Virus record (IMG/VR): IMGVR_UViG_3300036846_000608
Coordinates: 1-42,730 of that record
Origin: a virus
DNA length: 42,730 nt
Reading direction: 5' to 3' (one strand)
The translations under genes and the position numbers were made by a program. Below the pieces are notes generated by a model, which was not told where the DNA came from, searched no databases, and saw nothing but the letters and a program-made list of their open reading frames with translations. Shown in pieces: positions 18,391 through 42,730 of the stretch (positions are counted from its first letter, which is position 1; each line of letters begins with the position of its first letter).

Positions 18391-20408
18391 CAGCGCCCTC
18401 CGAGAATGCTCTGGGCGAGGCCGGGCGTGCGATATTTCTTGTTGAACTGGGTGATCACCTCGGGTGTCGGCTGCGAGCGAAGCAGATCAATCGCCTGGCG
18501 CGGAACGACGTTCTCCATTGGCAGGCCGTAGACACCGAACAGCGCCGCCTGACGCTGCGGATCGTCACCGGCCATGGTCTCGAGTTTTTTCTGATGCGAG
18601 ACTGCGGTTGCGGTGTTGATGCGTTCGAGCGCGCCGAGGATGCTGATGATGGAAGTGCGATCCAGCTTGATGTCACCGCCGACCGCAGCCTTGGCGATGT
18701 TCATGTCGCTATCGGAGATGTTGGCACCGCCGACCAGCGCCTGCCGCGCCGAGGCCAGCACCGGAGAGATCATGGCGCGAAATTCTTCGGTGGCATTGAT
18801 GCGTGGATCGGTCGGGAAGCCTGCCGCCGACATGATTTTTTTCAGCGACAGATTGGTCTCGGCAGCGGAGCCGGTGAACATCTTGCCCTCCAGCGCGGCC
18901 TGGCGCGCATTCTGGATTGCCATTTGCGCCATCGGGATCGACTTGTTCATCTCATGGCTCTTGCCGATCTCCTCGAACAATTTGCCCTGGTCGAGACCGC
19001 CGAATGCACCAGCCTTGGCGATCTCGATCTCCTTGGCCTTGCGTTCCAGTTCGCGTTCGGGCGCGCCACGTTCGAAGGTCTCGCGCGACGTCACCTGCTG
19101 ATTGTAGAGTTGCAACTGCGCCTCATAGGCTCGCATCCGCGCATCGTATTCCTGCTTCCGCTGCGCGGCGCCGTAGGTGATCATGTTCTTGGCGGCCTCG
19201 GCGTAATTCGGATCGCCGGGATGCAGCGCCAGCATTCGGTAACCGCGCTTTTCGTCCTCACTCATCGGAGGGTCTTGCGGCTGCACCGGCTTGTCGGGCG
19301 GCGCGGTCACGACCGGTGGCGGCGTCGGGCGTTGTGGCAGACCGGTGAGCGGTGCTGTCGGCGCCGGCATGATATCGGTGACAACACCGGGCTTCTGCGC
19401 CTGCGCCAGTTGCGGATTAGGCCCACCACCAGGGAGCGAAATAGTCGCTCCCTGCTGCGTAGGGTTTGGCTGCGGCACCCCCGGTACCGGCGCGCGATTT
19501 GGCTGCATGAGAAGTTCACGCGCGATGTCGTCGCGCTGCTGCATGGTGTCGGCGGCGGCGGCGCCGACACCCGGACTGATGCCGGTGATCGGTGGCGCAT
19601 CGCTTTGGATGTCGCCGCTGCGCGAGGCTGTCGGCGCATAGGAATAGGCCCCGGTCGGACCGCCCTTCATGCCCGTGACATCGGCAAGCCTGGCATCGGC
19701 GACCGCATCTGCCGGCGCGTAGGATGGGCGCGATCCAACCTGTCCCGGCGCAAATCCCGGTGCTGGCTGGTAGGGATCGAACGCGCCGGCAAATCTCGTC
19801 GATTGAGTGTCGGCGTTGGGCGGCTCCAGGCCCCTACCGGGCGCCATGGATGTAGCACGTCTCGCGGCATAAGCCTGCATCGCCTCTGGCGATAGCGCCG
19901 CAGCAGGAGAGGCGGCTGGCGGCGCTGGTGATGGTGCTGCCGGCGGCGGAATAATATAGGCCTGCTGGCGCGGCAGCGGCGCTGCAGGCGGTGCCTGTGG
20001 CGGCGTCTCCGGCGGCGTCTCCTGTGGCGGCGGCGTCTCCGGCGGTGCCTCGGGCGGCGTCACGGCGGCGATGACCGGGTTCTCGTCGTCGGCGGCGGCG
20101 GTCGTCGTCGCAGGCTCGGCTGCGCTCTGCGGGCCTGGTCGCGCCTCGCCTGGCACCATGCCAGGCGCCTCCTTCTCAAGCTGGCGCTGGTAGGCGGCCT
20201 CCTGCGCCATCAGCCGGCGATAGGTCATGCCCTCGCCGATGGCATCGCCGACCGCCGACAATCCCTCGCCCAGCGTTTTCGGATATCCCTTGCGGCTGTT
20301 CTGCGCCAGCATCGCCAGCGCGATCTTGCGACGCATTTCGAGCGCCGGATAGTTGGTGTTGCCGCCGGGATCGGAGAAGAATGAAAACAGTGAACCGGTG
20401 TCTGCCAT
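18390..20408 (-). CDS. large virion protein with a central Pro-rich linker
   Basis: 672 aa from the ATG (a GTG lies one codon upstream). TGATG junctions with both neighbours. Confidence 0.8.
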   Translation of the reverse strand: MADTGSLFSFFSDPGGNTNYPALEMRRKIALAMLAQNSRKGYPKTLGEGLSAVGDAIGEGMTYRRLMAQEAAYQRQLEKEAPGMVPGEARPGPQSAAEPATTTAAADDENPVIAAVTPPEAPPETPPPQETPPETPPQAPPAAPLPRQQAYIIPPPAAPSPAPPAASPAAALSPEAMQAYAARRATSMAPGRGLEPPNADTQSTRFAGAFDPYQPAPGFAPGQVGSRPSYAPADAVADARLADVTGMKGGPTGAYSYAPTASRSGDIQSDAPPITGISPGVGAAAADTMQQRDDIARELLMQPNRAPVPGVPQPNPTQQGATISLPGGGPNPQLAQAQKPGVVTDIMPAPTAPLTGLPQRPTPPPVVTAPPDKPVQPQDPPMSEDEKRGYRMLALHPGDPNYAEAAKNMITYGAAQRKQEYDARMRAYEAQLQLYNQQVTSRETFERGAPERELERKAKEIEIAKAGAFGGLDQGKLFEEIGKSHEMNKSIPMAQMAIQNARQAALEGKMFTGSAAETNLSLKKIMSAAGFPTDPRINATEEFRAMISPVLASARQALVGGANISDSDMNIAKAAVGGDIKLDRTSIISILGALERINTATAVSHQKKLETMAGDDPQRQAALFGVYGLPMENVVPRQAIDLLRSQPTPEVITQFNKKYRTPGLAQSILGGR

Positions 20409-21913
20409 CACGCTGCCCTCAATATGCCGCCCATCACTCTCTGGGGGTCGATGTATTTGATGCCGCCGCGCTGCGCGACCGCACCGGGATCGATCTGCTC
20501 AACGTCCTGCGCCATCGGACCGACATGACGCTGACCTGGATCGTGCTTGTAGGAGTATTCGTAGATCGGCAATTTTTCGCGCTCGCCGTCCTCGTTGGTC
20601 GAGAACACCGTGCCGATTTGATCGATGTCCTGCTTGGTCCTGACATCGGACATCATCATTCCCTTCGCCGCGCCGGCACCGAGACCGAGAATGCCGCCCA
20701 TTAACGACTGGTAGTTGGCATTCTGCTGCTGGTAGATGCCCATCTGCTGGCTGAACTGGTTGTTGATCAGACCGGCGACGTCAGTGGTCGGAATTTGCGC
20801 GCCGGGGGTCGAGACGAAATTCGGCTGCGTCACCTGCGACTGACCGAGCAGCGCGCTGATCTCGTTGATCGGCTGATTGCGCTGTGCGTACTGCTCCTGC
20901 ATGTACTGATTGCGCGCGGCCTGCGCGGCGTTGAAGCCGGCCTGCTGCTGCGCCATCTGCTGCGCCAACCCGGCGTTCTGGAAGGTTGCCGCCGCCTGGT
21001 TCTGCTGAAACTGCTGCCCAACTGCCTGATTGGCGAACACGCCGGCGCCCAGGTTCTGCTGAAACTGCTGCCCGGCTGCCTGGTTGGCGAACGTGCCCGC
21101 GCCCAATGATTGCTGGTACGCCTGCTGCTGCGCGGCGTTCGCAAAACCCGCCTGCTGCGCGGCGATATCCATCAGGGTCTTTTCCTGGCCGGTGGCGCCC
21201 GTGATCGCCTGCAGCCACGCATTGTTCTGCTGCTGGCCGAACGGCATCATGGCGTTGTTGTAGGCCTGGCTGCCGGGGCGAACGCCCTGGTCGGCCAGTT
21301 GCTGCTGCAGGTTGGCTTTCTGGATATCGAGTTGCGGATTGATCTGGCCCATCAGCGCCTGCTGCACCTGTTGGGCGTAGGCGGTGGGATCACTGGGGCC
21401 ATAGCTTGAAGTGATATTGCCGGCATTGGCGAGGCCGCTTGTGTCGAGCGAGGTCTGCACCGGGGCGGAAGCATCGATCGCGGCGTGCACCGGTTGCTTG
21501 TTGAACGTGGTAGCGGCACTGGGCACGTCAGTAATGGCACTGGCCTGACCGCCCGCAGGCGCGGAGCCGGTCGGATCGAACGGGGTCGACAGCATGCTGG
21601 AAATCCGCTGCGACTGGGTGTTTGCCATGCCGGCCAGATTTGTCTGCGCAGCCTGGGTCTGGGTCTGGATCGCCTGTTGCTGTGGCGACAGCGTCTGTGT
21701 CGCCGTGAACCTGGGGATGGTGTAGTTCGAGCCCGTGGTCGGATCGGTCCAGCTATAGCTATCGGTCGGCGCGTAGCTCAGAGACCCGGTCGGCGTGACC
21801 TGGTTGGTGTCATTGAGGAACGCGTTGGCGATCGCGGTCGAGACATTGGTGCCGGTTGCGAGGCCTGCGGTCTGGACCGGGTTGGGTGGCGTTGGTGCGT
21901 CTGGCTTACCCAT
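20408..21913 (-). CDS. tail fibre/spike protein with a Q-rich repeat region and a C-terminal Peptidase_S74 intramolecular-chaperone domain
   Basis: C-terminus: [15 protein letters not shown]...[11 protein letters not shown]...[17 protein letters not shown]...YIDPQRV is the S74 autoproteolytic chaperone signature. Confidence 0.85.
20998..21105. repeat. two tandem 54-nt units encoding LGAG(T/V)FANQA(A/V)GQQFQQN
   Basis: Read directly inside CDS 20408..21913. Confidence 0.85.
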
Positions 21914-24651: not shown

Positions 24652-26319
24652 TCACACGTTGACGCCGAGAACCTCGTAGGTCGCAGCAATCGCAATCAGT
24701 TCGACGTTTGGTTTCCCCTGCTGCGCCACCGTCACCTGCACGACCGGCGCATGCGAATAACCGGTTAAGCCAATCGAGACCCAGCCGGTGCTGCGCACCG
24801 GAGGCATCGAGGCGTAGGGCTGGTCCCATTTCGCCACATCCCATAATCCCTGATCCCAGACATCCGCCGGCCCCGGATCGGGACCGGCCATCGGTGGCGG
24901 CGGCAGCGTCACCAGATAATCGGTAACCGCCGATAGCTGCGGCTGGAACGGGTCTCGATTGGAGGCCGCAAACGAAGCCCGCGCCTGGTGCCAGACCACG
25001 GTCTGCGGCGGCGCCTGGAACATCTCCCAGCCGCCGACCAGCACCGCGGTGTAGGGCATGCCATCGTCATAGCCGGTGCGATCGGCCTGCATCACGATGC
25101 CGTCCTGGTTGCCGAAGAACATGTCGGCGCGCATGCGGATGAAACAGGTAGCGTCGTAACCGACGAAGCGCGCCCAGGCGCCGGTCGCGGTATTGATGCC
25201 GGCACAGTAACGGTTGCCGGGCGCGCCTCCCGGCCAGGTGACGAAGATGCCGCCGTACTCGTCCCACCGCTTCATGGTCCACGACCAGGAACGCTTGGCG
25301 GCGACCTCGTCGCGCCACATCGGCTTGATCGGTGTCGTCAGCAAGCTGAGATCGAGTTGCTCGCTTTCCTTGGTAATCGCCGCCGACATCGGCGTGATGC
25401 CGTCGACGGTGGCAATCAAGAGATCGCCACCGATGCTGAGATGGGCATTCATGCCCATCGGCGCACCGATGCCGTAGCGCCCCTCCTGGCGCCAGTTCGC
25501 GGCGTTGGAGGGATCGGTGCCGGTAAAGATCAGCAGTTCGCCCTGATCGGTGCCGAACACGCATTTTTCGTCGATGCCATCACCGGCATCGAGCGACCAG
25601 GTCGCACCCCATAACAATTTGCCGCCCTTGGTCGCGGCGCCTGACAGCGGCACCAATTCAAGCTGACCCTGAATGGCGTTGAGTGGCAGGTACCATGCAT
25701 TCATGGTATCGCCCTCGAGGAAGAAGTAGCGGTTGCGATACTTCCAGACATAAGTAAGGTTCTGGCCGGTGGCACAGGATGGCGGCGGCGTTATCGCGGG
25801 GTCGGTAGTGATCTGGCTCGCGTTCAGCGTGGTCCAGGTTGAGCCGTCGAAGCGCAGTGGATAGTCGCCGGCATCGTTGACCACCATCAAATAGTCGCCG
25901 GAAGCGTTCGCCAGTTGCGAGGCGCAGTAATTGCCCGACAATTGCCCCGACTTCACCAGCACCGGGGTAACAGCACTGACATCGAATAGCTTGGTGTCCT
26001 GTCCGGCAAACATTTTTTGCACGTTGGCGCTGACATACTCGAACGCCGAGATCACCGGCTTGCGCAAGGTCGAGGGCACCGGCGGCACCGGAGTGTCAAG
26101 CGCATGCAGATCGCAGTAGCGGATGCAGCCGCCGCGCAACTGCACGCCGCGCAGCGTAGGTATCCAGTTGTCGCAGATGATGGCTCCGCCCGGCTTCATG
26201 TAGGCGAAGTTCTCATTCAGAATAATGCCGCGGGTCGGCGCCGGCAGCGTGATCGCCCGCAGTTGCTGCGCCGCCTGTTGCGGCACCGCCTGGCGACGAA
26301 AGGCCTGGTGCATACTCAT
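24652..26319 (-). CDS. large tail structural protein (tail-tubular-B/nozzle-like by size and position)
   Basis: 555 aa from MSMHQ (ATGA coupling). The position after an adaptor-sized gene follows a T7-like order. No motif-level proof. Confidence 0.55.
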   Translation of the reverse strand: MSMHQAFRRQAVPQQAAQQLRAITLPAPTRGIILNENFAYMKPGGAIICDNWIPTLRGVQLRGGCIRYCDLHALDTPVPPVPSTLRKPVISAFEYVSANVQKMFAGQDTKLFDVSAVTPVLVKSGQLSGNYCASQLANASGDYLMVVNDAGDYPLRFDGSTWTTLNASQITTDPAITPPPSCATGQNLTYVWKYRNRYFFLEGDTMNAWYLPLNAIQGQLELVPLSGAATKGGKLLWGATWSLDAGDGIDEKCVFGTDQGELLIFTGTDPSNAANWRQEGRYGIGAPMGMNAHLSIGGDLLIATVDGITPMSAAITKESEQLDLSLLTTPIKPMWRDEVAAKRSWSWTMKRWDEYGGIFVTWPGGAPGNRYCAGINTATGAWARFVGYDATCFIRMRADMFFGNQDGIVMQADRTGYDDGMPYTAVLVGGWEMFQAPPQTVVWHQARASFAASNRDPFQPQLSAVTDYLVTLPPPPMAGPDPGPADVWDQGLWDVAKWDQPYASMPPVRSTGWVSIGLTGYSHAPVVQVTVAQQGKPNVELIAIAATYEVLGVNV

Positions 26320-27794: not shown

Positions 27795-28817
27795 TTAGGC
27801 CGCAGGATTGCTGTCGTAGAAGCGCCAGTTGAACAGCGGATTGGTCATGGTCAGTTCGCCCATCCAGCCGATGAATTGCGCGATAGCGTCTTTGTCTATC
27901 GGCATCATTCCCTCCCCATCGAACACTTTGTCGAAGTTGCGGTTGGGGTGATAGCGCAGCCGCAGGCTGTCGGTGTTAATCCCCATCGTGGTGTTGGACG
28001 GCATGTTGGAGCCGATGCCGCCATCGAGCACGATCTCGGCGCGCTTGCCGCCGCCGATATACTCCAGCGCCGTGAACCCGAGTTGACCCAGCGAGGTCTC
28101 GTTGGTCTGGCGCTGGATCGCGACGGTGGCGGCGTCGTAGGCCGAGTAGTGTTCCGGCGACATGATCAGGAGATCGGCATATTGCTTGCCCCTGCTCTGC
28201 TTGATCATGATCTGGTTGAGGTAGGGCCGGATGGTGGTCGCGGTGACCTGGGTGCCGATGGTTGGGAACGCCGAATTGGCATCGTAGGTCTGGGTGCGCC
28301 AGATCACGGCGGTGCCGCGGTCGATGCCGCCGTAGACGCCGGAAGTATTGACGATTGGTATCGCGGTGGCGAGCCCGGTGATCTGTTTTCCGCCGTTGGC
28401 GGTGCCGTCGGAGTACAGGCCGGCATCCATGGTGTCTTCAAGGGCGCGTTCGGCAGCGTCGATGTAGCTGTCGTAGACGTCCATCAATTGGGCTTCGCCC
28501 TCGTTGTTGAGAATTTCCTGCATCGACAGGATCACCGGCACCACGACCATCTTGGGGTCGAAGTACGCATCGTTGAACAGATCGAGCGCGGGGTTGAGCA
28601 GTTGGTCGTAGCCGGAATACCACTGCGCGACCTGTTTGCTGATCTGAAGCGTCTGGCGGATGCGGGGACCGCTATAGGTATGCCACAGTCCCTTGCGGCG
28701 CATCACCGCAAGCAGTGCGTTGTTGTTGGAGACGAGGTCTTGGTAGCCCTTGGACCGGTCTTCCAGCGCCAACGAAAGTATCTGCTGATAAGCAGCATTA
28801 GTATTGATGTTTGGCAT
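27795..28817 (-). CDS. major capsid protein (HK97-fold expected)
   Basis: 340 aa with a strong SD (gggagagg). Immediately downstream of the scaffold-like gene and followed by a hairpin. Composition is typical of coat proteins. Confidence 0.7.
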   Translation of the reverse strand: MPNINTNAAYQQILSLALEDRSKGYQDLVSNNNALLAVMRRKGLWHTYSGPRIRQTLQISKQVAQWYSGYDQLLNPALDLFNDAYFDPKMVVVPVILSMQEILNNEGEAQLMDVYDSYIDAAERALEDTMDAGLYSDGTANGGKQITGLATAIPIVNTSGVYGGIDRGTAVIWRTQTYDANSAFPTIGTQVTATTIRPYLNQIMIKQSRGKQYADLLIMSPEHYSAYDAATVAIQRQTNETSLGQLGFTALEYIGGGKRAEIVLDGGIGSNMPSNTTMGINTDSLRLRYHPNRNFDKVFDGEGMMPIDKDAIAQFIGWMGELTMTNPLFNWRFYDSNPAA

Positions 28818-28845: not shown

Positions 28846-30093
28846 TCAGAGGCCTCCATTGACGCGCCGGATGGCGCTCTGGATGGCCTCGCGTCGACCG
28901 ACAGGCTTCTCGGATCGCGACGTCCCGTTTGAGGGGCTGTCGGGGGCTCCGTGAATGCTTTTGTCGGCAGGTCGGGTCTGAGCCGATGGGGTGCGGGTCT
29001 GAGCCGCGTGGGTGGTGCTGCGGGTCTGAGCCGCGTGGGTGCCGGGCCGGAGTAACTCCGCCCGGCGATAGGCGGTGTCGAGATCGAACCCGCGTTTGAG
29101 TTCGTCCTCGATGATGTCGCCTAATTCATCGAACCTCGGATGCGTGGCGGCGTACTGGTCGACCGCGCTCCTGGTGTAAGTGAACTGCTGCGCAGTATGC
29201 ATCTGATGCAGGTGCTGCTGCAAGCCCGCTATCTGCTGATGCAGCGCGCCAATCTGGTGGCTTTGCGCGCCCTGGGCGTTGGCGGTCTGCATGGTCCTGA
29301 GTTGCTCCGGCGACTGGCTCAGGACGTGATAGGCGATGTCGCGAAAGGTAAGTTTCTGCCCGTTGGGGGAGCGCAGATTGAGATTGTTGACGATGACGTC
29401 GAGGCCGCCGACCGGGTCTTGTCTTAGCCGCTGCTCCATCGAGACGTAGTTGGTCAGCGCCTTTTGCAGCGTGGTGCCGTGCTGGGTCGCCATGTCGTGA
29501 AACTGGCGGATCGAGTTCATGGTCTCATGGTCACCGCGATAATAGCGATGGGCGGCGTCGAACTCCTGCGCCATGCGGTAGACTTCGCCGCGCACACTCT
29601 CGGGCGCGGCATGCCATTCCGCCTTGGCGTGATCAGCCATCCGCGGCGGCGGCGCGCGGTAGGGTGTGCCCTCCGGCAATTGCTTGTGCGGCGCTCGCTG
29701 GCCTTGTGGTACCCGCTGCTGGTCCGGTTGGGGGTTCTGCTGCCGCGGCGCGAACTGACCGCGATCACCGCGCGGCTGCTCGGCGGGCCGCTTCTTGAGA
29801 TCGAGTTTTTCGGTCGGCTCAGGCGGATTGTTGTGACCAGGTTTGGCGTCGGCGACCGGCGCCGGCTTCTCGGCGTGCCGCTCCGGCTTCGGCGGCGGAT
29901 TAGAGGCGCGCTCATAGGCCTTCTGGATCGCCTCGCGGCGGCTCTCGGCGCGATGCTCCGATCCCTTGAAATCGGGACCGACCGGCTTACTGGGTGCCTG
30001 CTGGCCGACCGGGGTCGGGCTGGCGACGGGTTCTGGATTGATCGCAACTTCGCTGGCGCCGCCCGCTGGAGGGGCAACGGTGGTGTCGGTCAT
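28846..30093 (-). CDS. scaffolding protein candidate
   Basis: 415 aa from MTDTT (SD aggagatcgat). Pro/Gln-rich and helical, directly upstream of the capsid gene. Contains THAAQTR repeats and two RREAIQ motifs. Confidence 0.55.
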   Translation of the reverse strand: MTDTTVAPPAGGASEVAINPEPVASPTPVGQQAPSKPVGPDFKGSEHRAESRREAIQKAYERASNPPPKPERHAEKPAPVADAKPGHNNPPEPTEKLDLKKRPAEQPRGDRGQFAPRQQNPQPDQQRVPQGQRAPHKQLPEGTPYRAPPPRMADHAKAEWHAAPESVRGEVYRMAQEFDAAHRYYRGDHETMNSIRQFHDMATQHGTTLQKALTNYVSMEQRLRQDPVGGLDVIVNNLNLRSPNGQKLTFRDIAYHVLSQSPEQLRTMQTANAQGAQSHQIGALHQQIAGLQQHLHQMHTAQQFTYTRSAVDQYAATHPRFDELGDIIEDELKRGFDLDTAYRRAELLRPGTHAAQTRSTTHAAQTRTPSAQTRPADKSIHGAPDSPSNGTSRSEKPVGRREAIQSAIRRVNGGL

Positions 30094-30106: not shown

Positions 30107-30271
30107 TTAGCCGCGGACCTTGCGGATCGCTTTCTTGATGCTGTCGCGGCGCTGATCGGCGCGGTTGAACTCGCGCGCCACGGTCTGGCTGATGCCAACC
30201 TTTTTCGCGAAGACGGCGTCGTGCGCCGCCGCCGCCATGAAGCGTTTCTGCTTGGGTGATTTACTTGGCAC
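30107..30271 (-). CDS. DUF3008-like small protein (GTG start)
   Basis: PSKSPKQKRFMAAAAHDAVFAKKVGISQTVAREF resembles the DUF3008 SKAQQRFM.. pattern. The upstream part of the track ORF looks non-coding. Confidence 0.5.
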   Translation of the reverse strand: MPSKSPKQKRFMAAAAHDAVFAKKVGISQTVAREFNRADQRRDSIKKAIRKVRG

Positions 30272-30452
30272 GGTGTCCTGCCCGATATTTTTCGATTGCG
30301 CTTCTGATCGATTGCCGGCGCGATTGTTTTGACGGTCTTGCCAGGGCCGCAAGATGGTAAGACGTTTCCAGACCAAGCCCCGCCTGGACCAACACTTCGA
30401 TAACCCCACCAAGTTCATCAAACCGGGGGTGCGCCTTGGCGAACCGATCCAC
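30261..30452 (-). CDS. mini-paralog of the scaffold C-terminal region (GTG start; alternatively the +1 continuation of 30469..30780)
   Basis: FAKAHPRFDELGGVIEVLVQAGLGLETSYHLAALARP..RRQSIRSAIEKY parallels scaffold YAATHPRFDELGDIIEDELKRGFDLDTAYRRAELLRP..RREAIQSAIRRV. Confidence 0.5.
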   Translation of the reverse strand: MDRFAKAHPRFDELGGVIEVLVQAGLGLETSYHLAALARPSKQSRRQSIRSAIEKYRAGHRAK

Positions 30453-30468
30453 GTCCGCTCGTATCTGT

Positions 30469-30780
30469 TTAAACCCTGCGCCCCGCCCTGAACTCGGAGA
30501 TGGTTTTGCCAATCGTCTCCCGACGCTTTCTTTTGAATTGCGGGTCATCGGTCGTTCGCGTCTTTGGCTTGAACTTTTCATTGCCAACCTCAGTAAGACC
30601 GAGCGCGCGACCGACGGCACGGAACGCGCGCTTCGATGTGTAGAAGACGCCGTCGACCTGCTCGGTCGGTGGCATGATGTCAGAGATCACATAGGGCAGC
30701 GGCAGATCGGAGCGCGCCGGTTTGAGTTTAGGTCTATGGACGCGCCACTTGTTCGGCTCGACCTCGACCAATCGGATCAC
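30469..30780 (-). CDS. hypothetical 103-aa protein ending in an RRETIGKTISEF motif (GTG start)
   Basis: GTGA coupling with the upstream 56-aa ORF. Confidence 0.6.
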   Translation of the reverse strand: MIRLVEVEPNKWRVHRPKLKPARSDLPLPYVISDIMPPTEQVDGVFYTSKRAFRAVGRALGLTEVGNEKFKPKTRTTDDPQFKRKRRETIGKTISEFRAGRRV

Positions 30781-30947
30781 AATGGCGGTCCCACAAAGAC
30801 CACGGGGATGCCGCCCGTGGTCACCTGGGTCACTGCCACGCCCTTGCCGTTGGCGGCCTCCGTAACCGGCAGGCCGATCTTCAGCGTCCCCGTCACGTTA
30901 ATCACGGGCATGCCGCCCGAAGCCACGGTCACCACAGGCATGCCCAT
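30777..30947 (-). CDS. 56-aa protein with G(G)(M/I/L)PV repeats (below ORF-track cutoff)
   Basis: MGMPVVTVASGGMPVINVTGTLKIGLPVTEAANGKGVAVTQVTTGGIPVVFVGPPL. Starts 2 nt after the upstream stop, and its stop overlaps the next start. Confidence 0.55.
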   Translation of the reverse strand: MGMPVVTVASGGMPVINVTGTLKIGLPVTEAANGKGVAVTQVTTGGIPVVFVGPPL

Positions 30948-30949
30948 GG

Positions 30950-31156
30950 TTATTTGTGCTTCCTGGTTTCGTGCTCGCCCTTGTCGTGCTCGGCGGGCTT
31001 CTTCGGCTCCTCCTGCTTCGGCTCCGGCCTGACATTGCTGCCCGGCGGCTCGTTGATGCTCGGCGGAGTGTTGGTGTCGATGCTGGGCGGGGTGCTGGTA
31101 TCGACGGGCTTGTCGTCGTCGGCCTTGGGATGATCGCTCTTGGGATTGTTGCTCAT
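30950..31156 (-). CDS. 68-aa Pro/Lys/Asp/Glu-rich disordered protein
   Basis: MSNNPKS start in an ATGA overlap with the upstream stop. Confidence 0.6.
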   Translation of the reverse strand: MSNNPKSDHPKADDDKPVDTSTPPSIDTNTPPSINEPPGSNVRPEPKQEEPKKPAEHDKGEHETRKHK

Positions 31157-31899
31157 GTGAATGTCCATGTTTGCGGGGCGGTGGTAACGGCTCCTCCGGT
31201 GATGACGGTGACGGGCCAGGTGCCCGCCGAGGCTTTCTTGTTGACGGTCGCTGTCAGCGAGGTCGCGGAAACGAAGGTGGTGACCTGCGCCACGCCGTTG
31301 ACGTAGATCACCGACTGCTTGGTGAAGTTGGTGCCGGTGCAGGTCAGCGCCTGGGTGCCGGCGCCCGACACCGTCGAGGTCGGCGAGATCGAGGCCAGCG
31401 CCGGATTGGTCGCCGGCGACAATGACGAGGGGTGGGTCTGGTTCGGCACGGGCATCGTGCCTGCTGTCAGCGCCGGGCCGCAGCCAACGGTCTGCAACTG
31501 ACCGAACGGGCTCGGGTTGGGCACACTGGCGGTCGCCAGGGTCTCGGTGCCGGCGCCCTCATGCGCAACACTTGATGAGGCCGGCGTAGCGCCGACATTG
31601 TTGACATTGGCATAAGCACTGCCGCCGCCAGGATAAGTGTTCTCGGTGCCGCCGGCGGTCGCGCCCGATCCCGACGCCAGTGCCGCCACGTTGGCGGCGA
31701 ACACCAGGCCCGATGCGGCAGTGCCCTTATCGAAATACGGTGGCGGGAAGTCTTTCGGGTTAACCGAACTCCAGTTCTTGGGGTCGTTCATGGTGTTCTT
31801 GGTGAAGTTTGGCGGGTTGGGGCCGGTTACCCCGGTGAAGGCGAAATTGGTCGGCGGCGTCGGGTTGGGCGGGGTGACGGTGACGGCACTTTGAGCCAT
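31153..31899 (-). CDS. virion-surface protein candidate with a C-terminal Ig-like (IPT/TIG-like) domain
   Basis: C-terminus: ISPTSTVSGAGTQALTCTGTNFTKQSVIYVNGVAQVTTFVSATSLTATV...WPVTVITGG. SD ggagaaagtaca. Confidence 0.75.
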   Translation of the reverse strand: MAQSAVTVTPPNPTPPTNFAFTGVTGPNPPNFTKNTMNDPKNWSSVNPKDFPPPYFDKGTAASGLVFAANVAALASGSGATAGGTENTYPGGGSAYANVNNVGATPASSSVAHEGAGTETLATASVPNPSPFGQLQTVGCGPALTAGTMPVPNQTHPSSLSPATNPALASISPTSTVSGAGTQALTCTGTNFTKQSVIYVNGVAQVTTFVSATSLTATVNKKASAGTWPVTVITGGAVTTAPQTWTFT

Positions 31900-31945
31900 T
31901 GTACTTTCTCCTCGGGGTTGTTAAATTCGTAGTTTGTAAGAGGAT

Positions 31946-31951
31946 TATAAT
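31946..31951 (+). promoter_or_regulatory. perfect TATAAT hexamer just upstream of the opposite-strand gene
   Basis: Read directly. No well-spaced -35 element was found, and it overlaps the SD spacer of the TTG start. Confidence 0.25.
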
Positions 31952-31952
31952 C

Positions 31953-32246
31953 TTGAGCACCAAGGCCCATCACATCGAAATCGACGACGGCGACCCCAAT
32001 GAGGTTTTCGTCCACGTCACGATCAACGCCGAGGACAACAGCGTCATCGACATCATCGAGATGTATCTGATCGAGAGACGCGAGAGCGCCTACGCCATGG
32101 CACATCGGCTTGCGAAAGCACTCGACTTGCCGCTGACCCTGATCGATGGCTACGGCAGCGAGCCAAAATCCGTTACTGTCGGGCAAGATCGCCCATCCGG
32201 TTTGCCTCCTGCCACCGCGAAAGCCGCTCAACCCACTGAGGCGTAG
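31953..32246 (+). CDS. acidic 97-aa protein encoded antisense to the late operon (TTG start)
   Basis: TTG preceded by aagagga at 8 nt. Strong GC3 bias in the plus frame through the 273-nt gap between the minus-strand genes. The 3' end overlaps the convergent gene by 74 nt. Confidence 0.6.
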   Translation: MSTKAHHIEIDDGDPNEVFVHVTINAEDNSVIDIIEMYLIERRESAYAMAHRLAKALDLPLTLIDGYGSEPKSVTVGQDRPSGLPPATAKAAQPTEA

Positions 32247-33561
32247 CCTTCTGCAGCATCGGCACGTCGCCGCCGGCCTTCATGAACATGGACAGGTGTG
32301 CGGCGTTCCGCGCCTCGGGCGACAGCAATCTCATATCCGGTCGCGCTGCCAGATGGGCCGCCGTGAGGTCGGGAAACATCACATCGACGGGAACGTGGCC
32401 AAACTGCCCCTGATAATCGCCGCCCATGACCGAACGGTAGGTACGATGTCGCGGCAGGAAATCCTCATTCACACGCTCGCCGGTCAGGCGAGACACTGAA
32501 CCCCCGGAAGCCGCTAACGGCACGTCGACCAGCCCAGGATCGGTCGCCGCGAAGCGAGCCTGATCAACCCGTGGGAAACCAGCATCACGGTATTCAGCCT
32601 TGTCCATTTCCTTGGCCAGTTTGACGCGCAGGCCGCCCGGCGCGCTCGCCAGATAATCCTGGGCGCGGTGCGACAGGATGCCTGGCCAGTTCGGATCGGT
32701 CTCGCGCATGACAGCGTCAAACCTGGCAAGCCCGCTATCGGTGATCGGCGCGTGCTGTGCCATGCTGACGAGCGTGTCGGAGACATGGTGCGAAAAATCA
32801 ATCGAGCGTTCGCCCATCGCCGAGTAAACGCCGTAGACCGGTGCGTCAGCTTCCTGGGCACGGTTCAACAGCCGCGTGACGGCAGGTTTCTCCGAAGCCC
32901 ACGCTGCACCCTTGCCAGCCATCTCCAGTGGATAATCCCGACCACCCTGCAGCCATGTCGGCATCTCGAACCGCTGTCCGCCGATGCCGAGAATGTCGCC
33001 CATGGCCGCGGCACGGTCGCCCGCGAGCGGCAACAGGTACGATCCCTCAACCGCAGCCGCAGGCAATTCTGGTCGCTGCACGTTGCGCAGCCGCATCGCG
33101 TATTCGGTGTCATGCACTGGTGAGGTGTGGCCTATCTTCGAAAACGGGCTCGAAAACAGTCTCGCCTTCCCGGCCTGCGCCTCGTCGGGATCAAGTGCGG
33201 CGCCAGCAGCGAGTGCAGCCATTCGCACTGGAATATTGCCGCCGCCGGTTGCAATGGTCAAACCAACGTCGAGCGGCGACGTCGGAATTAACTTGGCACC
33301 AACATCGGCGGCGACTGTGCCCGCCGTGCGCTGCGGCGGATCGGCGCGCCAGGCCGAGAACGGCACTAGCGGGTCCGGTTTTTCCTGCGGTGCCGGCGCC
33401 CTGGCATTGGGGTCAGGCCACATCGTGCCTTGCGGCTCGTAATGTAGTTGCTGCGCCAGCGTACCCATCGCCCATGGCGGCAGACCCTGGGTCGGGTCCG
33501 GCTGTTCTGCCAGTCCGCCCATCGGCAGGCCGCTCATCGGATCGTAGTAAGTGTCGCTCAT
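32173..33561 (-). CDS. 462-aa protein of unknown function, coupled to the upstream ART-like gene
   Basis: ATGA coupling. Long ORF with coding bias. Confidence 0.85.
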   Translation of the reverse strand: MSDTYYDPMSGLPMGGLAEQPDPTQGLPPWAMGTLAQQLHYEPQGTMWPDPNARAPAPQEKPDPLVPFSAWRADPPQRTAGTVAADVGAKLIPTSPLDVGLTIATGGGNIPVRMAALAAGAALDPDEAQAGKARLFSSPFSKIGHTSPVHDTEYAMRLRNVQRPELPAAAVEGSYLLPLAGDRAAAMGDILGIGGQRFEMPTWLQGGRDYPLEMAGKGAAWASEKPAVTRLLNRAQEADAPVYGVYSAMGERSIDFSHHVSDTLVSMAQHAPITDSGLARFDAVMRETDPNWPGILSHRAQDYLASAPGGLRVKLAKEMDKAEYRDAGFPRVDQARFAATDPGLVDVPLAASGGSVSRLTGERVNEDFLPRHRTYRSVMGGDYQGQFGHVPVDVMFPDLTAAHLAARPDMRLLSPEARNAAHLSMFMKAGGDVPMLQKATPQWVERLSRWQEANRMGDLARQ

Positions 33562-34487
33562 GGCGACACCTGATCTTGCGGCTGATACTGATCCTGCGCC
33601 GCCAGCGCACCCAAGGTGCCGGTAGGGGCGCCGACCACGCCGTATTTTTTCATGATGTCGACCATGCTGATCGGACTGTTGGGATCGAACACCACGTAGT
33701 TGTGGGTGGGTGGTGGATAGGATGACGAAAGCACGTCACCACTGGGCGATGTGGTAAGCGCCGGTCTGGCATTGCGGCTGCCTTCATCGAGATAGCGGAT
33801 GCCGGGAACGCCGGCCTCACGCAGCATGTTGCTCGATGCCTCTGCATTTTGCGTGAGACCGCCGATCCCCGAATAAAGCCTGCCGCCAGGCGATGTCGGC
33901 GCAATGCCCATGCGTTCAGCGATGATGTCGGGGTCTCCGATTTTGGCATCCCAGTGCGCCCGCAGCGCGTCATAGGCTTTTTGCTGCGCAATCGGCTTGT
34001 CCCAATCCAGAAACTGCGACGGGTCGGCATTGATGTTGACCTCGTACATCCGACCGGCGGGCTTCAACGGAACGCCGCTCTGGTATTGCTCGATGCCTTT
34101 GACGACATTCTGGATGCCTGGAATGTTGGCTTCGACGTTCCACGGTTGTACCGTGTTCGGATCGGCCACCTGCCTGCGCATCTCGTCGAGCCGCCCGCGA
34201 AAATCTTTCAGCAGTTCTTCCGGGTTGTATCCGGCCTCCAGCGAGTTGCCGACCCAGTATGGCAGTCGCTCACCGGTTTCGAGATAACGGTCCTTGAGGT
34301 CCGACAGTCGGTTGCGATAGCCCCTCGCGACGTCCTCGTTGCCGGCAAAATACAGTCCGTGGCCGTAGGCTTGCGCGCCCTCGCCGGTACCAATCTTGCC
34401 GATGTCAAAACGCTCGAAATCGTGCGGGCTACCGTGATAGGCACGGATGCCGGTGATCGTCCGCGCGATGGCATCGCGCCAACTCAT
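33558..34487 (-). CDS. polyvalent-protein-type domain protein, possible ADP-ribosyltransferase (H-Y-E class)
   Basis: N-terminus: AYHGSPHDFERFDIGKIGTGEGAQAYGHGLYFAGNEDVARGY. C-terminus: GVPGIRYLDEGSR...NYVVFDPN. From memory it resembles ART-PolyVal-like domains of phage polyvalent proteins. Not verified. Confidence 0.8.
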   Translation of the reverse strand: MSWRDAIARTITGIRAYHGSPHDFERFDIGKIGTGEGAQAYGHGLYFAGNEDVARGYRNRLSDLKDRYLETGERLPYWVGNSLEAGYNPEELLKDFRGRLDEMRRQVADPNTVQPWNVEANIPGIQNVVKGIEQYQSGVPLKPAGRMYEVNINADPSQFLDWDKPIAQQKAYDALRAHWDAKIGDPDIIAERMGIAPTSPGGRLYSGIGGLTQNAEASSNMLREAGVPGIRYLDEGSRNARPALTTSPSGDVLSSSYPPPTHNYVVFDPNSPISMVDIMKKYGVVGAPTGTLGALAAQDQYQPQDQVSP

Positions 34488-34750
34488 TGTCCGACCCCGC
34501 GACGGTAAGCGTTCAGCACCAGCGCACGGTCGAGATCAAATGCGCCAAGGTCGTTCGCCAGCCGCGTGACCGGCGGGATCGTTGCCCCGAGGCCGCCCTG
34601 CATCTGATAACCCAGTAGCTGCCGGCCCAGTTGCGGGACATCTGCGCGCATGATCGGCGGATCGTTGCGGCGGTCCTCGATCGGCGCCCGCCGCATCTGT
34701 TCCCAGTCCATTAGTTGCGCGGTGATGCGGTCTCTGACGTCATCGCTCAC
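34484..34750 (-). CDS. hypothetical 88-aa protein (GTG start)
   Basis: SD aagagg at 8 nt. ATGA coupling with the downstream gene. Confidence 0.65.
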   Translation of the reverse strand: MSDDVRDRITAQLMDWEQMRRAPIEDRRNDPPIMRADVPQLGRQLLGYQMQGGLGATIPPVTRLANDLGAFDLDRALVLNAYRRGVGQ

Positions 34751-34777
34751 GGATCGACCTCTTGTCGTATCATCGCA

Positions 34778-35635
34778 TCACCATCGATTGGGAATGACGA
34801 AAACACGCCGTCCAAAATTGAGTACGCCAGGCGGCACCTCAATAACGACTTGATCGGCGTGGCCGATAAAGGCGGCTCTATCACTTGCTTCGATTGCTGC
34901 CAACACGCCCGAGATCGCTCCCGCGACCGAGCCCGCAAAGGCAGCAATATCCCCTGCTTCCGTCGAGGCCCACGCCGCGGTGATCCTGACATCACCGGCG
35001 AAGCCCACAGTGTCGCCGGTCTCAACCGCGGCGAGTGTGCCGGAAATGGTCGGGAAAGTACCGGCGCCAGCGAACGCGGCAATATCCGTATTCTCTATCG
35101 CCGCGAGCGCACCTGAAACGATCAGGCTTCCGGCAAATAGAGCGCTGTCACCTATTTCAGTCGCCGCCAATGTGCCGGCAATGACGACCTGGCCAGCGAA
35201 GGCGACTACATCCTTCGCCTCGGTCGAAGCCAGCGCGCCGGAGACGACGACTTGACCGGCAAAGGCCGCGACGTCCCTGGCCTCGGTTGCGGCCAGTGCG
35301 CCGGAGGCGCCAACGGCACCGGTAAAGGCTGCGGCGTCCTTCGCCTCGGTAACAGCCAGTGCGCCGGAGACAATGACATTCCCGGCAAAGACCGCATGGT
35401 CCTGGGTCTCGGTGACAGCCAGTGCGCCGGAGACAACGACACTGCCGGCAAAGGCCGCGACATCTCTTGCTTCAGTCGTCGCTAACGCTGCACTTAGAAC
35501 AACCTGGCCAGTAAAAGCCGCACGATCCTGCGCCTCGGTGACCGCCAGTATTGCTAACTGACCATCCCAGAGCGCCTGATCCCAAAGACCGCTATCCCAA
35601 TATTGCGGTGGCGGTACGCCTCTGGGGTCTTCCAT
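34778..35635 (-). CDS. tandem-repeat protein: 11 x about 21 aa (ALAxTExxDxAAFAGxVxVSG)
   Basis: Repeats read directly from the translation. N-terminal Trp-rich QYWDSGLWDQALWDG. Confidence 0.85.
   Translation of the reverse strand: MEDPRGVPPPQYWDSGLWDQALWDGQLAILAVTEAQDRAAFTGQVVLSAALATTEARDVAAFAGSVVVSGALAVTETQDHAVFAGNVIVSGALAVTEAKDAAAFTGAVGASGALAATEARDVAAFAGQVVVSGALASTEAKDVVAFAGQVVIAGTLAATEIGDSALFAGSLIVSGALAAIENTDIAAFAGAGTFPTISGTLAAVETGDTVGFAGDVRITAAWASTEAGDIAAFAGSVAGAISGVLAAIEASDRAAFIGHADQVVIEVPPGVLNFGRRVFVIPNRW
34847..35557. repeat. coding tandem repeat array, period 63 nt, about 11 units
   Basis: ctcggt..gccagtgcgccggag recurs every 63 nt (for example 35282, 35345, 35408). Confidence 0.85.
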
Positions 35636-35646
35636 TCAAACGACAC

Positions 35647-36063
35647 CTAGCCATGCGTGATGGTTCCCGAGGTCACCGTCACGGTTTGCCCCGAAGTAAT
35701 TGAGGTCGAGGTCAGGTTAATGTCGGAACCGGAGGTGCCGACGGTCAAACCGGAAACAACGGTGGTGCCGGTATTGGTTCGCAGTTCGGCCTTGGCGGCA
35801 GTGCCGGTGGCCGAGGCCGCCACCGACAACGGCACGCCGGCCAGCGTTGCGATCACGGTGCCAGAGCCGGAGACGGTAAACGGCGCAGTAGTCAGCGCAA
35901 TAGTAGCGAGCACACCGACCGCACCGGCCAGCGAAGCAGTGCCGATCACCAATTGTCCGGCAGTCGCTGAACCGGTGGAAGCGGTAAAGGTCTTGCCCGC
36001 GACCTCGTCACTCATCAACTGCATGCGGTTGGTTTTCAGGGTGTCGTTATAGACGACGGCCAT
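35647..36063 (-). CDS. 138-aa Thr/Gly/Ala/Ser-rich beta protein downstream of the portal
   Basis: MAVVYNDTLKTNRMQL... then ..TVGTSGSDINLTSTSITSGQTVTVTSGTI. A recurrent phage family of unknown role. Confidence 0.8.
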   Translation of the reverse strand: MAVVYNDTLKTNRMQLMSDEVAGKTFTASTGSATAGQLVIGTASLAGAVGVLATIALTTAPFTVSGSGTVIATLAGVPLSVAASATGTAAKAELRTNTGTTVVSGLTVGTSGSDINLTSTSITSGQTVTVTSGTITHG

Positions 36064-36078
36064 GATGTCGTTCCCTTC

Positions 36079-38340
36079 TCATGGGATGAAGCCACCCTTC
36101 GGCATCTTGAACTGCTGGCTGGCGCGCCGGTCAGCCGCCTGTTGCGCGAACTGACTGGCCTGTTGCTGCTGCGCCCGCTCTTGCGCCTGCATCCTGGCGA
36201 TCTCCAGGGCGGTATCGACCTGGTGCTCGCGCATATCCTGATTGCTCTCCTGCTGGGTGGCCATCGCCCTGGCGTTGATCTCCTGCACCCTGGCTGAATG
36301 CTCCTGGTTGCGGCCCTGCACTTCCATCGCAGTGGAGACGCTGTCGGACTGGATTTTGGCAGCATCGGTCCTGCCCTTCTGATCGAACTGCTGGACTTTC
36401 AGTTGACGGTCGGCATTGTCGCGCTCTCTTTGATAGGCAATCTTCATCTGCTCGATCTGGATCGCGGCCTTGTTCTGCGCAGTGGCGGGGTCGTCGCCCT
36501 TGCCCTGGCCGGCCTTGCTCTCCATTATTTGCACCAGGCCGTCGATGGCGCCATCGAGGCTTCGTGAAACCCGGAACGGCGCCACCGAGAATTTCAGCAG
36601 TTCGCCGCAGAAGCCCGCGGTCTGCGGCTCGGCGGCGGCCATCTGCGCCAGTTGCGGCATCAATTGTCCGAGCATGCCGACGAACTCGGCCCTTCGTTGC
36701 TTCTCGGCATTCTCGTCGGCCTGGATGGTGCTATCAGTCTCGATGTCGAGCACAAACGACTTGGCGCGATTGTCTTTCAGAAACCTCAACACCGCTTCGA
36801 TGGTCGGCTGCTGCTGCAACTGCTGTATCTGCTGCTGCACCTGGGCCATCACCTGCTGCGCCAGTTGCGGGTTCGCTTGCGCCCGTTGCATCAATTGCGG
36901 GTTTTGCATGGCCTGCTGTGCCTGCTGCTGGATGCCAGCGATCTGCTGTTGCACCATCGCCTTCGTCGGCAGTTGGGTCTGGCTCATCTCGATGATGGTG
37001 ACGGGATTGAACTTCTCGGTGATGATCTCACTGGCTATTTCCACCAGGTCGCGCGCGATCCTGACGATCTCGGCCTGCTTGTCGCGGATACGAGAAGAAC
37101 CGTACTGGGTCTTCAACTGCTGGGCACCGAGGGTCTCCTGCGGATCGGTCGAGCCGCGCATGATGTCGGCCATGCCGGTGATCTGGTAGATGTCATCGAT
37201 CATCTTGCTCCTGAGATCGACCAGGTTCGACACCGTGGTGGCGATCATGTCGATCGGCATCCAGATGATGACTTCCTTGGTGCCGCCGAACGCCGCCCAG
37301 TTCGAGATCGGCACCATCACTCTGCCAGGAGTCTTGATCTTGATCGCGGCCTCGATCGCATCGCCGATCTCGGCACCGCCTGCGGGATAGAAACCCTTGA
37401 CCTCCAGCGCATCACTGAGCGCGTGGATTCTCGAGGTCAGCATATTGACCTCTTCCAACTGGTCCTTGTACTGCAGCACGTCGGGCACCGGCACCAGCGA
37501 GCCGCGCTGGCAGGTGCCGTAGGCCGGCTTTGGGCATGGAAAGAAATTCTGCAAGTCCAGGTGCGGATCGTCCTCGTCGAGGATCAGATCGCAGCCCTTG
37601 GCGACCCAGGCCACGCGACGGTCGGTCTTGCTCCAGATTTCCCAGAACTTGGCGCGCTCGCGTCGATCGGCGCCGCCGATCTCCTTGCTTTCCTTGTCGA
37701 CGCGATACTCGGCCTTCTGATATTCATCGCCGCTGGTTTTGCGGAAGCGTTGCCGCGCCTCGGATCGCGTCAGGTAAGAGGCGGCGGCAACCCAGGTCAC
37801 CTCGTACCAGCACCTGGAAATCGAATGCAGAAAATCCCTGCGGTGCTTGAAGTCGATGCAGACCCGTTCGCTGTCGTAGTAATTGTCATCACTACCGCTG
37901 TCATAGCGGCACCAGGCGACACCTCTACCGATCAGCGAGAGGTCGTCGCGGATCAGCATCATGATGTCGTCGATGCGGGCGAGATCGAATGAAACCACCG
38001 CGCAGCGCTCCATCACTTCGGAGGCCGCCTGGTAGATCGGTCGGCGATCCTTGAACTTCGGCACCACCACCGGGATCGGCGGGCGAGCATAGATCGAAGG
38101 CTTGATCACCTCGCAATTGGCCCAGAAAATCTGAAACTCCTTGTCGCGCGACAAGGTGGACAGGCGTTCCAGCGAGGCGAATTGCTTATCGATCTTGTCG
38201 CAGTGGTCGTGCCATTTCTCGAAGGCGTCTTCACTCTCCTGCAACAGGTTGAGCCAGGCCCTGGCCTTCTTCGGTTCGATGGTCGGATTGTATTCCTGGT
38301 CGTCGGTGCGGAGGTCTTCGTTAACCGGCGCGTCGTTCAC
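36079..38340 (-). CDS. portal protein
   Basis: 753 aa. GTGA-coupled directly to TerL. Long Q-rich helical C-terminal region. Assigned on position and size only. Confidence 0.75.
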   Translation of the reverse strand: MNDAPVNEDLRTDDQEYNPTIEPKKARAWLNLLQESEDAFEKWHDHCDKIDKQFASLERLSTLSRDKEFQIFWANCEVIKPSIYARPPIPVVVPKFKDRRPIYQAASEVMERCAVVSFDLARIDDIMMLIRDDLSLIGRGVAWCRYDSGSDDNYYDSERVCIDFKHRRDFLHSISRCWYEVTWVAAASYLTRSEARQRFRKTSGDEYQKAEYRVDKESKEIGGADRRERAKFWEIWSKTDRRVAWVAKGCDLILDEDDPHLDLQNFFPCPKPAYGTCQRGSLVPVPDVLQYKDQLEEVNMLTSRIHALSDALEVKGFYPAGGAEIGDAIEAAIKIKTPGRVMVPISNWAAFGGTKEVIIWMPIDMIATTVSNLVDLRSKMIDDIYQITGMADIMRGSTDPQETLGAQQLKTQYGSSRIRDKQAEIVRIARDLVEIASEIITEKFNPVTIIEMSQTQLPTKAMVQQQIAGIQQQAQQAMQNPQLMQRAQANPQLAQQVMAQVQQQIQQLQQQPTIEAVLRFLKDNRAKSFVLDIETDSTIQADENAEKQRRAEFVGMLGQLMPQLAQMAAAEPQTAGFCGELLKFSVAPFRVSRSLDGAIDGLVQIMESKAGQGKGDDPATAQNKAAIQIEQMKIAYQRERDNADRQLKVQQFDQKGRTDAAKIQSDSVSTAMEVQGRNQEHSARVQEINARAMATQQESNQDMREHQVDTALEIARMQAQERAQQQQASQFAQQAADRRASQQFKMPKGGFIP

Positions 38341-42603: not shown

Positions 42604-42730
42604 AGGGAAGCATCACATGCGTACCATCGAGAACACCGACCACCTGACCGAACTGGTCTGCGAGACCATCGACTGCCCCAAATGGGCGAACCGCTGCAGC
42701 GAGTGCGGCGACACCGCGCCCGGCGACCAG
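42604..42730. repeat. terminal direct repeat copy 2; contains a truncated duplicate (42617..42730) of CDS 14..241
   Basis: Exact identity to bases 1-127, read directly. Confidence 0.95.

Follow-up and report, generated by a model that had tools for sequence, protein, structure and literature searches.

The viral record IMGVR_UViG_3300036846_000608 is a stretch of 42,730 nucleotides, which we analysed over its whole length and call the window. Its late genes run on the minus strand in the order large terminase, portal, an intervening block, scaffold, major capsid protein, a 236-residue protein, an SU10-type adaptor and a 611-residue nozzle-like protein. The block, at 30107-36063 between the portal (38340-36079) and the scaffold (30093-28846), is the subject of this report. 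A first-pass annotation of this DNA had described 12 genes there and had tentatively taken them for an accessory insertion of ~6 kb that serves to load the capsid with proteins for co-injection and to decorate it. The gene count is confirmed by the 12 open reading frames (ORFs) at these positions and by a separate gene call on a Logan assembly, in which a 7.5-kb segment spanning the block was found identical; that call also gives 12, with the mini-scaffold ORF swapped for a 45-residue ORF on the opposite strand. We found that the block is built in layers, and that in the most variable of them a predicted ADP-ribosyltransferase (ART, g309) and a coupled 462-residue protein (g462) carry two short terminal peptides, motifs A and B, the second of which also ends the scaffold. 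By its portal, capsid and adaptor sequences, the phage is assigned to the short-tailed Mx8/Pr (Brucella Tb-like) lineage; 'Mx8/Pr' is named as a podovirus lineage in PMC10386132.

The interval that holds the block is highly variable. A capsid-protein search of IMG/VR gave 155 relatives, of which the best 80 (83-89% identical) were retained, and interval lengths were taken from the 28 IMG/VR loci that hold both the portal and the capsid anchors. From the portal end to the major capsid gene the window measures 7.3 kb and the 28 relatives 3.2-9.5 kb; in RHph_I3_18 and Brucella phage Pr the distance is 2.0-2.4 kb, and the interval has merely 2-3 small genes of about 0.8-1.1 kb. Among the relatives compared, g138 and g285 recur in L081 only, the ART in L015 and L052, and a close form of g462 in L052 only, and g88 and g119 are unique to the window. 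The variability expected of an accessory region is thus present, in length and in gene content, but the single insertion is not: g248, g56, g103 and g104, which lie near the scaffold, are found in most relatives, and with g68/72 they are conserved in the clade. Judged by these sequence comparisons, the block is a composite of three layers, and its strictly accessory part is the portal-proximal ~3.9 kb and g119 only. The first layer consists of the clade-conserved small genes by the scaffold, which encode the immunoglobulin-like (Ig-like), PSINEPPGS and GMPV proteins, g103 and g104; the second of g138 and the 11-repeat g285, probable external appendage proteins; and the third is a hypervariable slot behind the portal with g88, the ART-PolyVal gene, g462 and a convergent small partner gene. 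G+C is uniform over the block (0.61-0.63). The slot, its two motif-bearing ends and the genes that anchor the comparison are as follows.

36079-38340, minus strand: portal protein, 753 residues, the upstream anchor (phrog_12082 portal, E = 1.9e-179).
34484-34750, minus strand: g88, a small protein, first of the cassette array, with a degenerate B-like peptide, VRDRITAQL, at its N-terminus.
33558-34487, minus strand: g309, ADP-ribosyltransferase of the ART-PolyVal family (PF18760, 34.1 bits against a gathering score of 31.2).
34455-34481, minus strand: motif B at the ART N-terminus, WRDAIARTI (pattern match).
33585-33614, minus strand: motif A at the ART C-terminus, LGALAAQDQY (pattern match).
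32173-33561, minus strand: g462, 462 residues, with a disordered N-terminus, a ~310-residue uncharacterised domain and a C-terminal motif A, MGDLARQ.
31953-32246, plus strand: convergent ORF of 97 residues, which overlaps g462 at the 3' ends of both; also predicted in the gene call for the Logan contig.
28846-30093, minus strand: scaffold-like protein, 415 residues, directly before the capsid gene (phrog_25516, 1e-16).
27795-28817, minus strand: major capsid protein, 340 residues, the downstream anchor (phrog_9953, 5.5e-80).

In most relatives the slot behind the portal holds one large protein of 430-710 residues ahead of the Ig-like gene. These proteins fall into mutually unrelated groups, namely a DUF7178-containing group, present in 17 of the 28 loci that have both anchors, the g462 family, in 4 of the 28, and three more. 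The large protein is missing in some loci, for example L011, and in some relatives it is preceded by extra small cassettes encoding ART-PolyVal, ART-like 182-residue or 299-residue proteins. Pfam searches with ten slot proteins of relatives returned DUF7178 and a weak ART-PolyVal match and nothing else. In L081 (2761-5503 and 6443-6748) the slot is filled by an HNH endonuclease, two very Gly-rich proteins and what is left, in truncated form, of a DUF7178 slot protein, along with the g138 homologue and a short repeat protein. With such contents the slot behaves as a recombination hotspot and bears signs of active gene turnover. In L159 (1290-3934), whose g138 is 91% identical, a 529-residue protein with a faint DUF7178 match is preceded by a DUF6817 protein and by a weak match to 2OG-Fe(II) oxygenases, which add to the kinds of enzyme seen in this neighbourhood.

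By its family profile g309 is an ADP-ribosyltransferase, with predicted NAD-dependent activity. The PF18760 match covers residues 15-95, H18 and Y46 are invariant across 53 aligned homologues, and the protein is predicted to be of the H-Y-(E/D) type, with an uncertain assignment for the third, acidic residue of the triad. A sequence search of PDB with the ART gave nothing above chance. Homologues of the ART were found in 75 viral loci; of the 43 examined, at least 20 have the portal as the nearest large upstream ORF, and ART genes lie directly downstream of portal genes in several phage clades. A parallel layout is seen in another phage clade, where L124 (9700-15050) encodes a portal, an ART-PolyVal protein, two Ig-like proteins, an acidic protein, a small protein, a scaffold and a capsid protein, the small protein beginning MPAKSKAQ and resembling g104; the arrangement that runs from portal through ART to scaffold is thus widespread outside the window lineage. 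On its upstream side the ART gene overlaps g88, start with stop. No family match was found for g88 in Pfam, PHROG or NCBIfam, and its positional counterpart in L015 (C39) begins MSWRDSIVRAL. On the downstream side the ART stop and the g462 start overlap by 4 nucleotides in separate ORFs, so that the coupling of an ART-like protein to a 462-residue protein noted in the first pass stands.

The partner protein g462 belongs to no Pfam, PHROG, NCBIfam or PADLOC family. In its AlphaFold2 model a disordered N-terminal region of ~148 residues is joined to an alpha/beta core of moderate confidence; the core has no fold match in PDB, and BFVD returns uncharacterised phage proteins only. The N-terminal region is also present on P0012, P0014, P0016 and P0017, which have other C-terminal domains. 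A family profile of g462 gathers 2,069 cluster representatives, many of them 1,000-2,800 residues long. Six of the long proteins were scanned: five carry InPase, ART-PolyVal, Amidase_2, Hydrolase_2 or LPD23 domains, and the sixth has a sub-threshold VanY match only. In P0037 a single chain comprises the g462 domain, an ART, a domain homologous to the 299-residue cassette of L015 and a second ART, and these domains are separated by a repeated linker peptide of its own. Because the g462 domain is elsewhere fused, within proteins of 1,300-2,800 residues, with ART, InPase and cell-wall hydrolase domains, the ART and g462 look like a polyvalent protein that has been split into separate coupled genes.

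The first-pass annotation had also described an antisense acidic gene. It corresponds to the convergent ORF, which is real and conserved, with a homologue in L052 (2972-3202; 52-59% identical, GC3, the G+C fraction at third codon positions, 0.87), but is just mildly acidic (isoelectric point 5.2, computed on a 115-residue ORF from 31899). Small opposite-strand ORFs lie behind g462-family genes in five of nine contexts, in differing phage types (the window, L052, a Bradyrhizobium prophage and two further contigs, with the ORFs of L161 at 11292-11510 and L163 at 7527-7712 among them), and are missing from the other four. The ORFs of the window and the Bradyrhizobium prophage have weak similarity (E = 0.026), and we therefore take the association as positional only. 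A scan of 28.8-38.4 kb found promoter and terminator sites no more often than in shuffles, and hence does not establish a promoter of its own for the antisense gene. We hypothesise that the ORF encodes a partner or antidote of g462, or is an extra gene expressed from the prophage; the pairing recalls toxin-immunity pairs.

Motif B, (R/K/W)R(D/E/Q)(A/S/T)Ixx(A/T)(I/L), occurs five times in a six-frame translation of the window, always at a protein end in or beside the block. Besides the N-terminal copy on the ART, it forms the C-termini of the scaffold (RREAIQSAI), g103 (RRETIGKTI), g119 (RRQSIRSAI) and g104 (RRDSIKKAI), and the scaffold's N-terminal region has an additional B-like RREAIQKAY. 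Motif A, MGxLAxQDxY, ends the ART; g462 has two copies in its disordered N-terminal region and another at its C-terminus. The RR(D/E)xI tag that had been said to be shared by several block proteins is accordingly borne by the small basic proteins and, as an N-terminal variant, by the ART, but not by g462, which bears motif A. Counted over the window and 80 related loci against residue shuffles, motif B has 95 matches (0.75 on average in shuffles; 90 of the 95 at most 15 residues from a stop codon) and motif A 56 (0.6 in shuffles; 31 C-terminal, 17 N-terminal and 8 internal), both about 100-fold over chance and every match on the coding strand; these counts are inflated by the common ancestry of the 80 loci, yet the carriers include non-homologous proteins. 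Within the motifs, codons vary at their third positions almost as much as in the flanks, and the copies in the window differ at synonymous sites, which argues that a peptide and not a DNA repeat is conserved. On this ground we rejected an explanation of the motifs by repeats in the DNA.

The two peptides follow a positional grammar. Small cassettes (the ART, the ART-like and the 299-residue proteins) open with motif B and close with motif A, and motif A is at both ends of the large proteins of the slot (g462, the DUF7178 group and two further groups); neither motif is on the Ig-like, GMPV, repeat or g138 proteins. The gene order is fixed: B-type cassettes come first, the A-A protein follows them, and the Ig-like gene follows the A-A protein. 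Of 162 representatives of the g462 family, just 7 have strict motif A, which makes this motif a tag specific to the phage lineage and no part of the g462 domain.

The C-terminal domain of a P22-type scaffolding protein binds the coat protein, and in encapsulin cargo and P22-type scaffolds a short terminal basic or amphipathic peptide suffices for loading into an HK97-fold shell. Motif B is like these peptides in that it is the scaffold's own C-terminus; its binding to a capsid protein we only infer. Taking the observed gene content, interval variability, domain identities and motif grammar with its statistics together, we propose that the late head operon contains a plastic cassette region from which injected effectors are loaded by terminal tags, a reading to which we give about an even chance. 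In this scheme g103, g119 and g104, which share the basic amphipathic C-terminal peptide of the scaffold, would bind the same procapsid partner as the scaffold C-terminus does, and because motif B is common to that C-terminus, B-tagged proteins would enter the procapsid. The cassette array of g88, ART and g462 would present as separate, translationally coupled genes the domains that are fused elsewhere. By their terminal peptides the enzymes would be brought into the procapsid and possibly be docked onto one another, motif A serving to dock cassettes to a common site or mutually. The enzymes would then exit together with the DNA and, at the onset of infection, act on targets in the host, the ART by ADP-ribosylation, and the convergent gene may neutralise g462 in the producing or lysogenic cell. 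On the virion exterior, g138, g285, g248 and g56 would sit as appendages or decoration. What we infer in this scheme is that the enzymes are encapsidated and injected, what they target and what the antisense gene does.

If the proposal is true, natural peptide tags would explain how effector repertoires are swapped rapidly in the arms race with host defences, and two peptides of ~10 residues would offer a simple handle for testing and engineering the loading of capsid cargo. How short-tailed phages choose cargo without a prohead protease is poorly understood. The locus also gives context to two large uncharacterised families, that of the g462 domain (>2,000 representatives) and that of g138 (>3,000 homologues).

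Several observations weigh against tag-directed loading, beginning with the shared ancestry that inflates the motif counts. No recognisable catalytic fold was found for g462 in the PDB and BFVD comparison. With g138 and g285 looking like external proteins, a portion of the block is unrelated to cargo, and the capsid-loading system of the first-pass annotation is to this extent too broad, although the ART belongs to a class predicted to be packaged and end peptides are shared with the scaffold. In L124 the ART leader is unlike the C-terminus of its own scaffold, and the idea that a cargo leader mimics the scaffold therefore does not generalise. Ejection-type proteins are already encoded separately, in the tail module at 20408-21913. 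Finally, no prohead protease gene was found by Pfam or PHROG family match among the head-module proteins, which makes processing of the T4 type unlikely.

A more specific form of the proposal, which we regard as doubtful, is that two-peptide addressing builds a non-covalent polyvalent protein inside the capsid: B imports, A docks A, and the convergent gene provides the antidote. The N-terminal motif B of the ART would then be a copy of the C-terminal helix of the scaffold and would take the first enzymes into the procapsid. The C-terminal motif A of one cassette would dock the N-terminal motif A of the next, such that swappable enzymes would be chained and co-injected.

The first-pass annotation did not recognise the block as a described module; the concept is in fact known from polyvalent proteins, MuF toxins and T4 internal proteins. 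Phage polyvalent proteins, including this ART clade, are predicted to be packaged in the capsid and injected (Iyer et al. 2017; PMC5512222), and they hold two to fifteen effector domains per polypeptide (PMC5512222). The window shares with them the ART-PolyVal family (Tox-ART-HYD2 clade), a partner domain that is the same as in the long fused proteins, and a position amid portal, terminase and head genes. It is unlike them in that its domains are separate coupled genes with lineage-specific terminal peptides, and no MPTase-type peptidase or other polyvalent hub domain was detected in the block. In the literature that we searched, the general idea is known, but neither the split-cassette form nor the two-peptide grammar is described.

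The closest functional analogue is the T4 internal-protein locus. T4 internal proteins are unrelated to one another, share only a capsid-targeting leader and are encoded in a hyperplastic genomic hotspot (PMC12373910). As with IpI-III and Alt, unrelated proteins of a variable locus share a short terminal peptide in the window, and Alt, a T4 cargo protein, is also an ADP-ribosyltransferase, although of the R-S-E clade, whereas the window ART is of the H-Y type. The likeness does not extend to sequence similarity, of which there is none. T4 leaders are cut by the prohead protease, which was not found here, and the window has two motifs, placed at N- or C-termini, one of them common to the scaffold. 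The MuF/SPP1 gp7 toxins (Jamet et al. 2017; PMC5576092) are likewise encoded directly downstream of the portal, combine a conserved N-terminal part with a variable C-terminal effector and have a possible cognate small partner gene. The conserved part of the slot proteins is, unlike theirs, a disordered region of ~130 residues with short motifs and not a folded MuF domain, and PF04233 had no Pfam match in the block proteins or in the ten slot proteins of relatives. The Brucella Tb/Pr phages (Perisivirus) and RHph_I3_18 have the order portal, small genes, scaffold and capsid in common with the window but lack an ART, g462, repeat protein, g138 or Ig-like gene.

An unlikely alternative to loading by tags is that the cassette genes are unpackaged accessory genes in a recombination hotspot, which act in the producing or lysogenic cell through superinfection exclusion, late host takeover or a toxin-antitoxin function, with the end peptides as leftovers of cassette exchange. 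The phage is temperate, and one gene is antisense to the operon and recurs beside g462 homologues as immunity genes do. The g462 homologue of the Bradyrhizobium prophage lies upstream of the terminase gene, outside the head genes, and the L081 hotspot, with its HNH endonuclease and truncated remnant, fits equally. This explanation is harder to reconcile with the ART and g462 genes being co-oriented with portal and scaffold and overlapping the stop codons of their neighbours, in a region not enriched in promoter- or terminator-like sites. Nor would it predict motifs conserved as peptides, with synonymous sites free, strictly at protein ends and, for motif B, on the scaffold itself, or ART genes behind portal genes in several clades.

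Less probable again is a role of motifs A and B as linkers or processing sites in a polyprotein-like system descended from one polyvalent protein, where they would mark cleavage sites or flexible joints, or would be homology patches for swaps between co-infecting relatives. The 8 internal matches, in which motif A divides modules inside some slot proteins, would suit such a role, as would the repeated interdomain linker peptide of the fused P0037 and the spacing of the genes, in which the C-terminal copy of one lies just tens of bases from the N-terminal copy of the next. There is, on the other hand, no protease gene in the head module, and the copies differ synonymously, both within the window and across relatives, and thus are poor substrates for homologous exchange. 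Moreover, motif B forms the extreme C-terminus of the scaffold, g103 and g104, which precludes a linker role there.

The remaining genes of the block, and the terminase that precedes the portal, are as follows.

39698-38337, minus strand: large terminase.
35647-36063, minus strand: g138, a beta-sandwich protein with a helix at its N-terminus (phrog_3758 'virion structural protein', 4e-9).
34778-35635, minus strand: g285, a repeat protein with an N-terminal WDxGLWDxxLWD and a C-terminal FGRRVFVIPNRW.
31153-31899, minus strand: g248, with a low-complexity N-terminal half and a C-terminal Ig-like domain (IPT/TIG, CoaZ-type).
30950-31156, minus strand: g68/72, a disordered protein rich in Pro, Lys, Asp and Glu with a PSINEPPGS motif (gene call).
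30777-30947, minus strand: g56, with four G(M/L/I)PV motifs.
30469-30780, minus strand: g103, basic and conserved in the lineage (phrog_21669, 3.5e-10).
30261-30452, minus strand: g119, a diverged copy of the scaffold C-terminal domain (49% over 47 residues, E = 1e-13).
30107-30271, minus strand: g104, basic, ~54 residues from the GTG at 30271 (phrog_16759, 3e-19).

The protein encoded next to the portal, g138, is the Thr/Gly-rich beta protein of the first-pass annotation, and both parts of that description hold: Thr makes up 21%, Ala 14%, Gly 12% and Ser 11% of its residues (58% together), and its AlphaFold2 model is a beta-sandwich with a predicted local distance difference test (pLDDT) value of 93.7. 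It has >3000 homologues of 135-140 residues. Sequence searches of PDB with g138 and g248 were empty or at chance level. The best structural match to g138 in PDB is 9rkv_A, which is 139 residues long and belongs to the tail-fibre complex of phage 7-7-1 (E = 1.3e-4, probability 1.00, template-modelling score 0.58); the entry contains a long fibre, a short fibre and a small 'garland' protein (PMC12796354). On the strength of the model comparison, g138 is a probable external fibre-associated virion protein; like g285, it resembles a fibre or garland-type protein and not cargo.

By its sequence g285 is a probable fibre. The 11 repeats reported for it are there as eleven ~21-residue ALAxTEAxDxAAFAG units when counted by eye, and as 9 with a strict regular expression. 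Its family matches, one to phrog_38872 and one to minor tail proteins, are weak. The g285-type proteins of relatives are 420-924 residues long and all end FGR(K/R)xxxIP(G/N)RW, and some have an N-terminal domain that is LamG-like by reading of the sequence. A WDxGLWDxxxWD motif is present both at the g285 N-terminus (35560-35600) and in the C-terminal part of the 611-residue nozzle-like protein (~24820-24860), and may be a common attachment or trimerisation element. The Ig-like assignment of g248 is supported by the NCBIfam CoaZ repeat NF058597 (63.7 bits against a cut-off of 30) and by homologues 56-73% identical, many of which have PF01833 (TIG/IPT); g248 itself has no Pfam match. It is, from these family matches, a probable surface or decoration protein.

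That the whole block consists of external head or neck decoration and fibres, with the ART-like and g462 proteins as appendage parts, is very unlikely: the resemblance of g138 to a chain of the 7-7-1 tail-fibre complex, the g285 repeat fibre with relatives read as LamG-like, the Ig-like domain of g248 and the Gly-rich fibre-like proteins in the same slot of L081 would favour it, but the ART keeps the invariant H and Y of an NAD-using family linked to intracellular targets (PMC5512222), the g462 domain is found together with InPase and further domains that act inside cells, and the ART and g462 (the latter in its AlphaFold2 model) have no fibre-like repeats or beta-helix features.

Beside the scaffold, g119 is the mini-scaffold paralog that the first pass had picked out. 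It probably starts at GTG 30452, giving 63 residues, is absent from the relatives compared and was overlooked by the automatic gene caller. An origin by recent duplication was rejected because g119 has no DNA repeat in common with the scaffold gene. In the scaffold, three tandem units of 21-27 nucleotides at 28971-29041 encode THAAQTR-like repeats; this linker joins the conserved C-terminal domain to the terminal motif B, and g119 is without it. The DUF3008 likeness suggested for g104 was not borne out, as there is no Pfam family at E <= 0.1 and phrog_16759 is matched instead. The N-terminal module of g104 also heads phrog_22033 (845 residues) and phrog_25121 (263 residues), both 'virion structural protein'. 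A homologue of g103 in RHph_I3_18 is 37% identical, and at the g103 position in Brucella phage Pr, gp15 has a similar basic C-terminal tail and ends KKRREDIKRAISEV. The four G(M/L/I)PV motifs of g56 make it the G(M/I)PV-repeat mini-protein of the earlier description, and in one relative its N-terminal module continues into an additional domain of ~170 residues. The disordered mini-protein, g68/72, is a member of a PSINEPPGS family that is widespread in the clade (for example L016 at ~6897, L030 at ~8201 and L005 at ~4702); the motif is invariant, and the tails after it diverge into poly-Lys, acidic or helix-extension-helix-like forms.

The ends of the window are identical over exactly 127 bp (1-127 and 42604-42730), which indicates that the contig is a circular assembly and the genome is complete at ~42.6 kb. 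A tyrosine integrase is encoded at 9043-10380 and a serine recombinase at 380-1015, which identify the phage as temperate; there is also a gene for an Erf-like annealing protein. Of sequenced phages the nearest are Rhizobium phage RHph_I3_18, with a portal 45% identical, and the Brucella Tb/Pr group, with portals 36% identical. No relative at the DNA level came up when 13 kb was compared by Megablast with 50,697 phage records, and a capsid-protein search of GTDB representative genomes found no lysogen, the sole match being 38% identical in a metagenome-assembled genome of Actinomycetota. Downstream of the tail genes, three large proteins of 501, 673 and 511 residues are encoded at 16855-21913 on the minus strand, and one of the three matches 'virion structural / DNA ejection protein' families.

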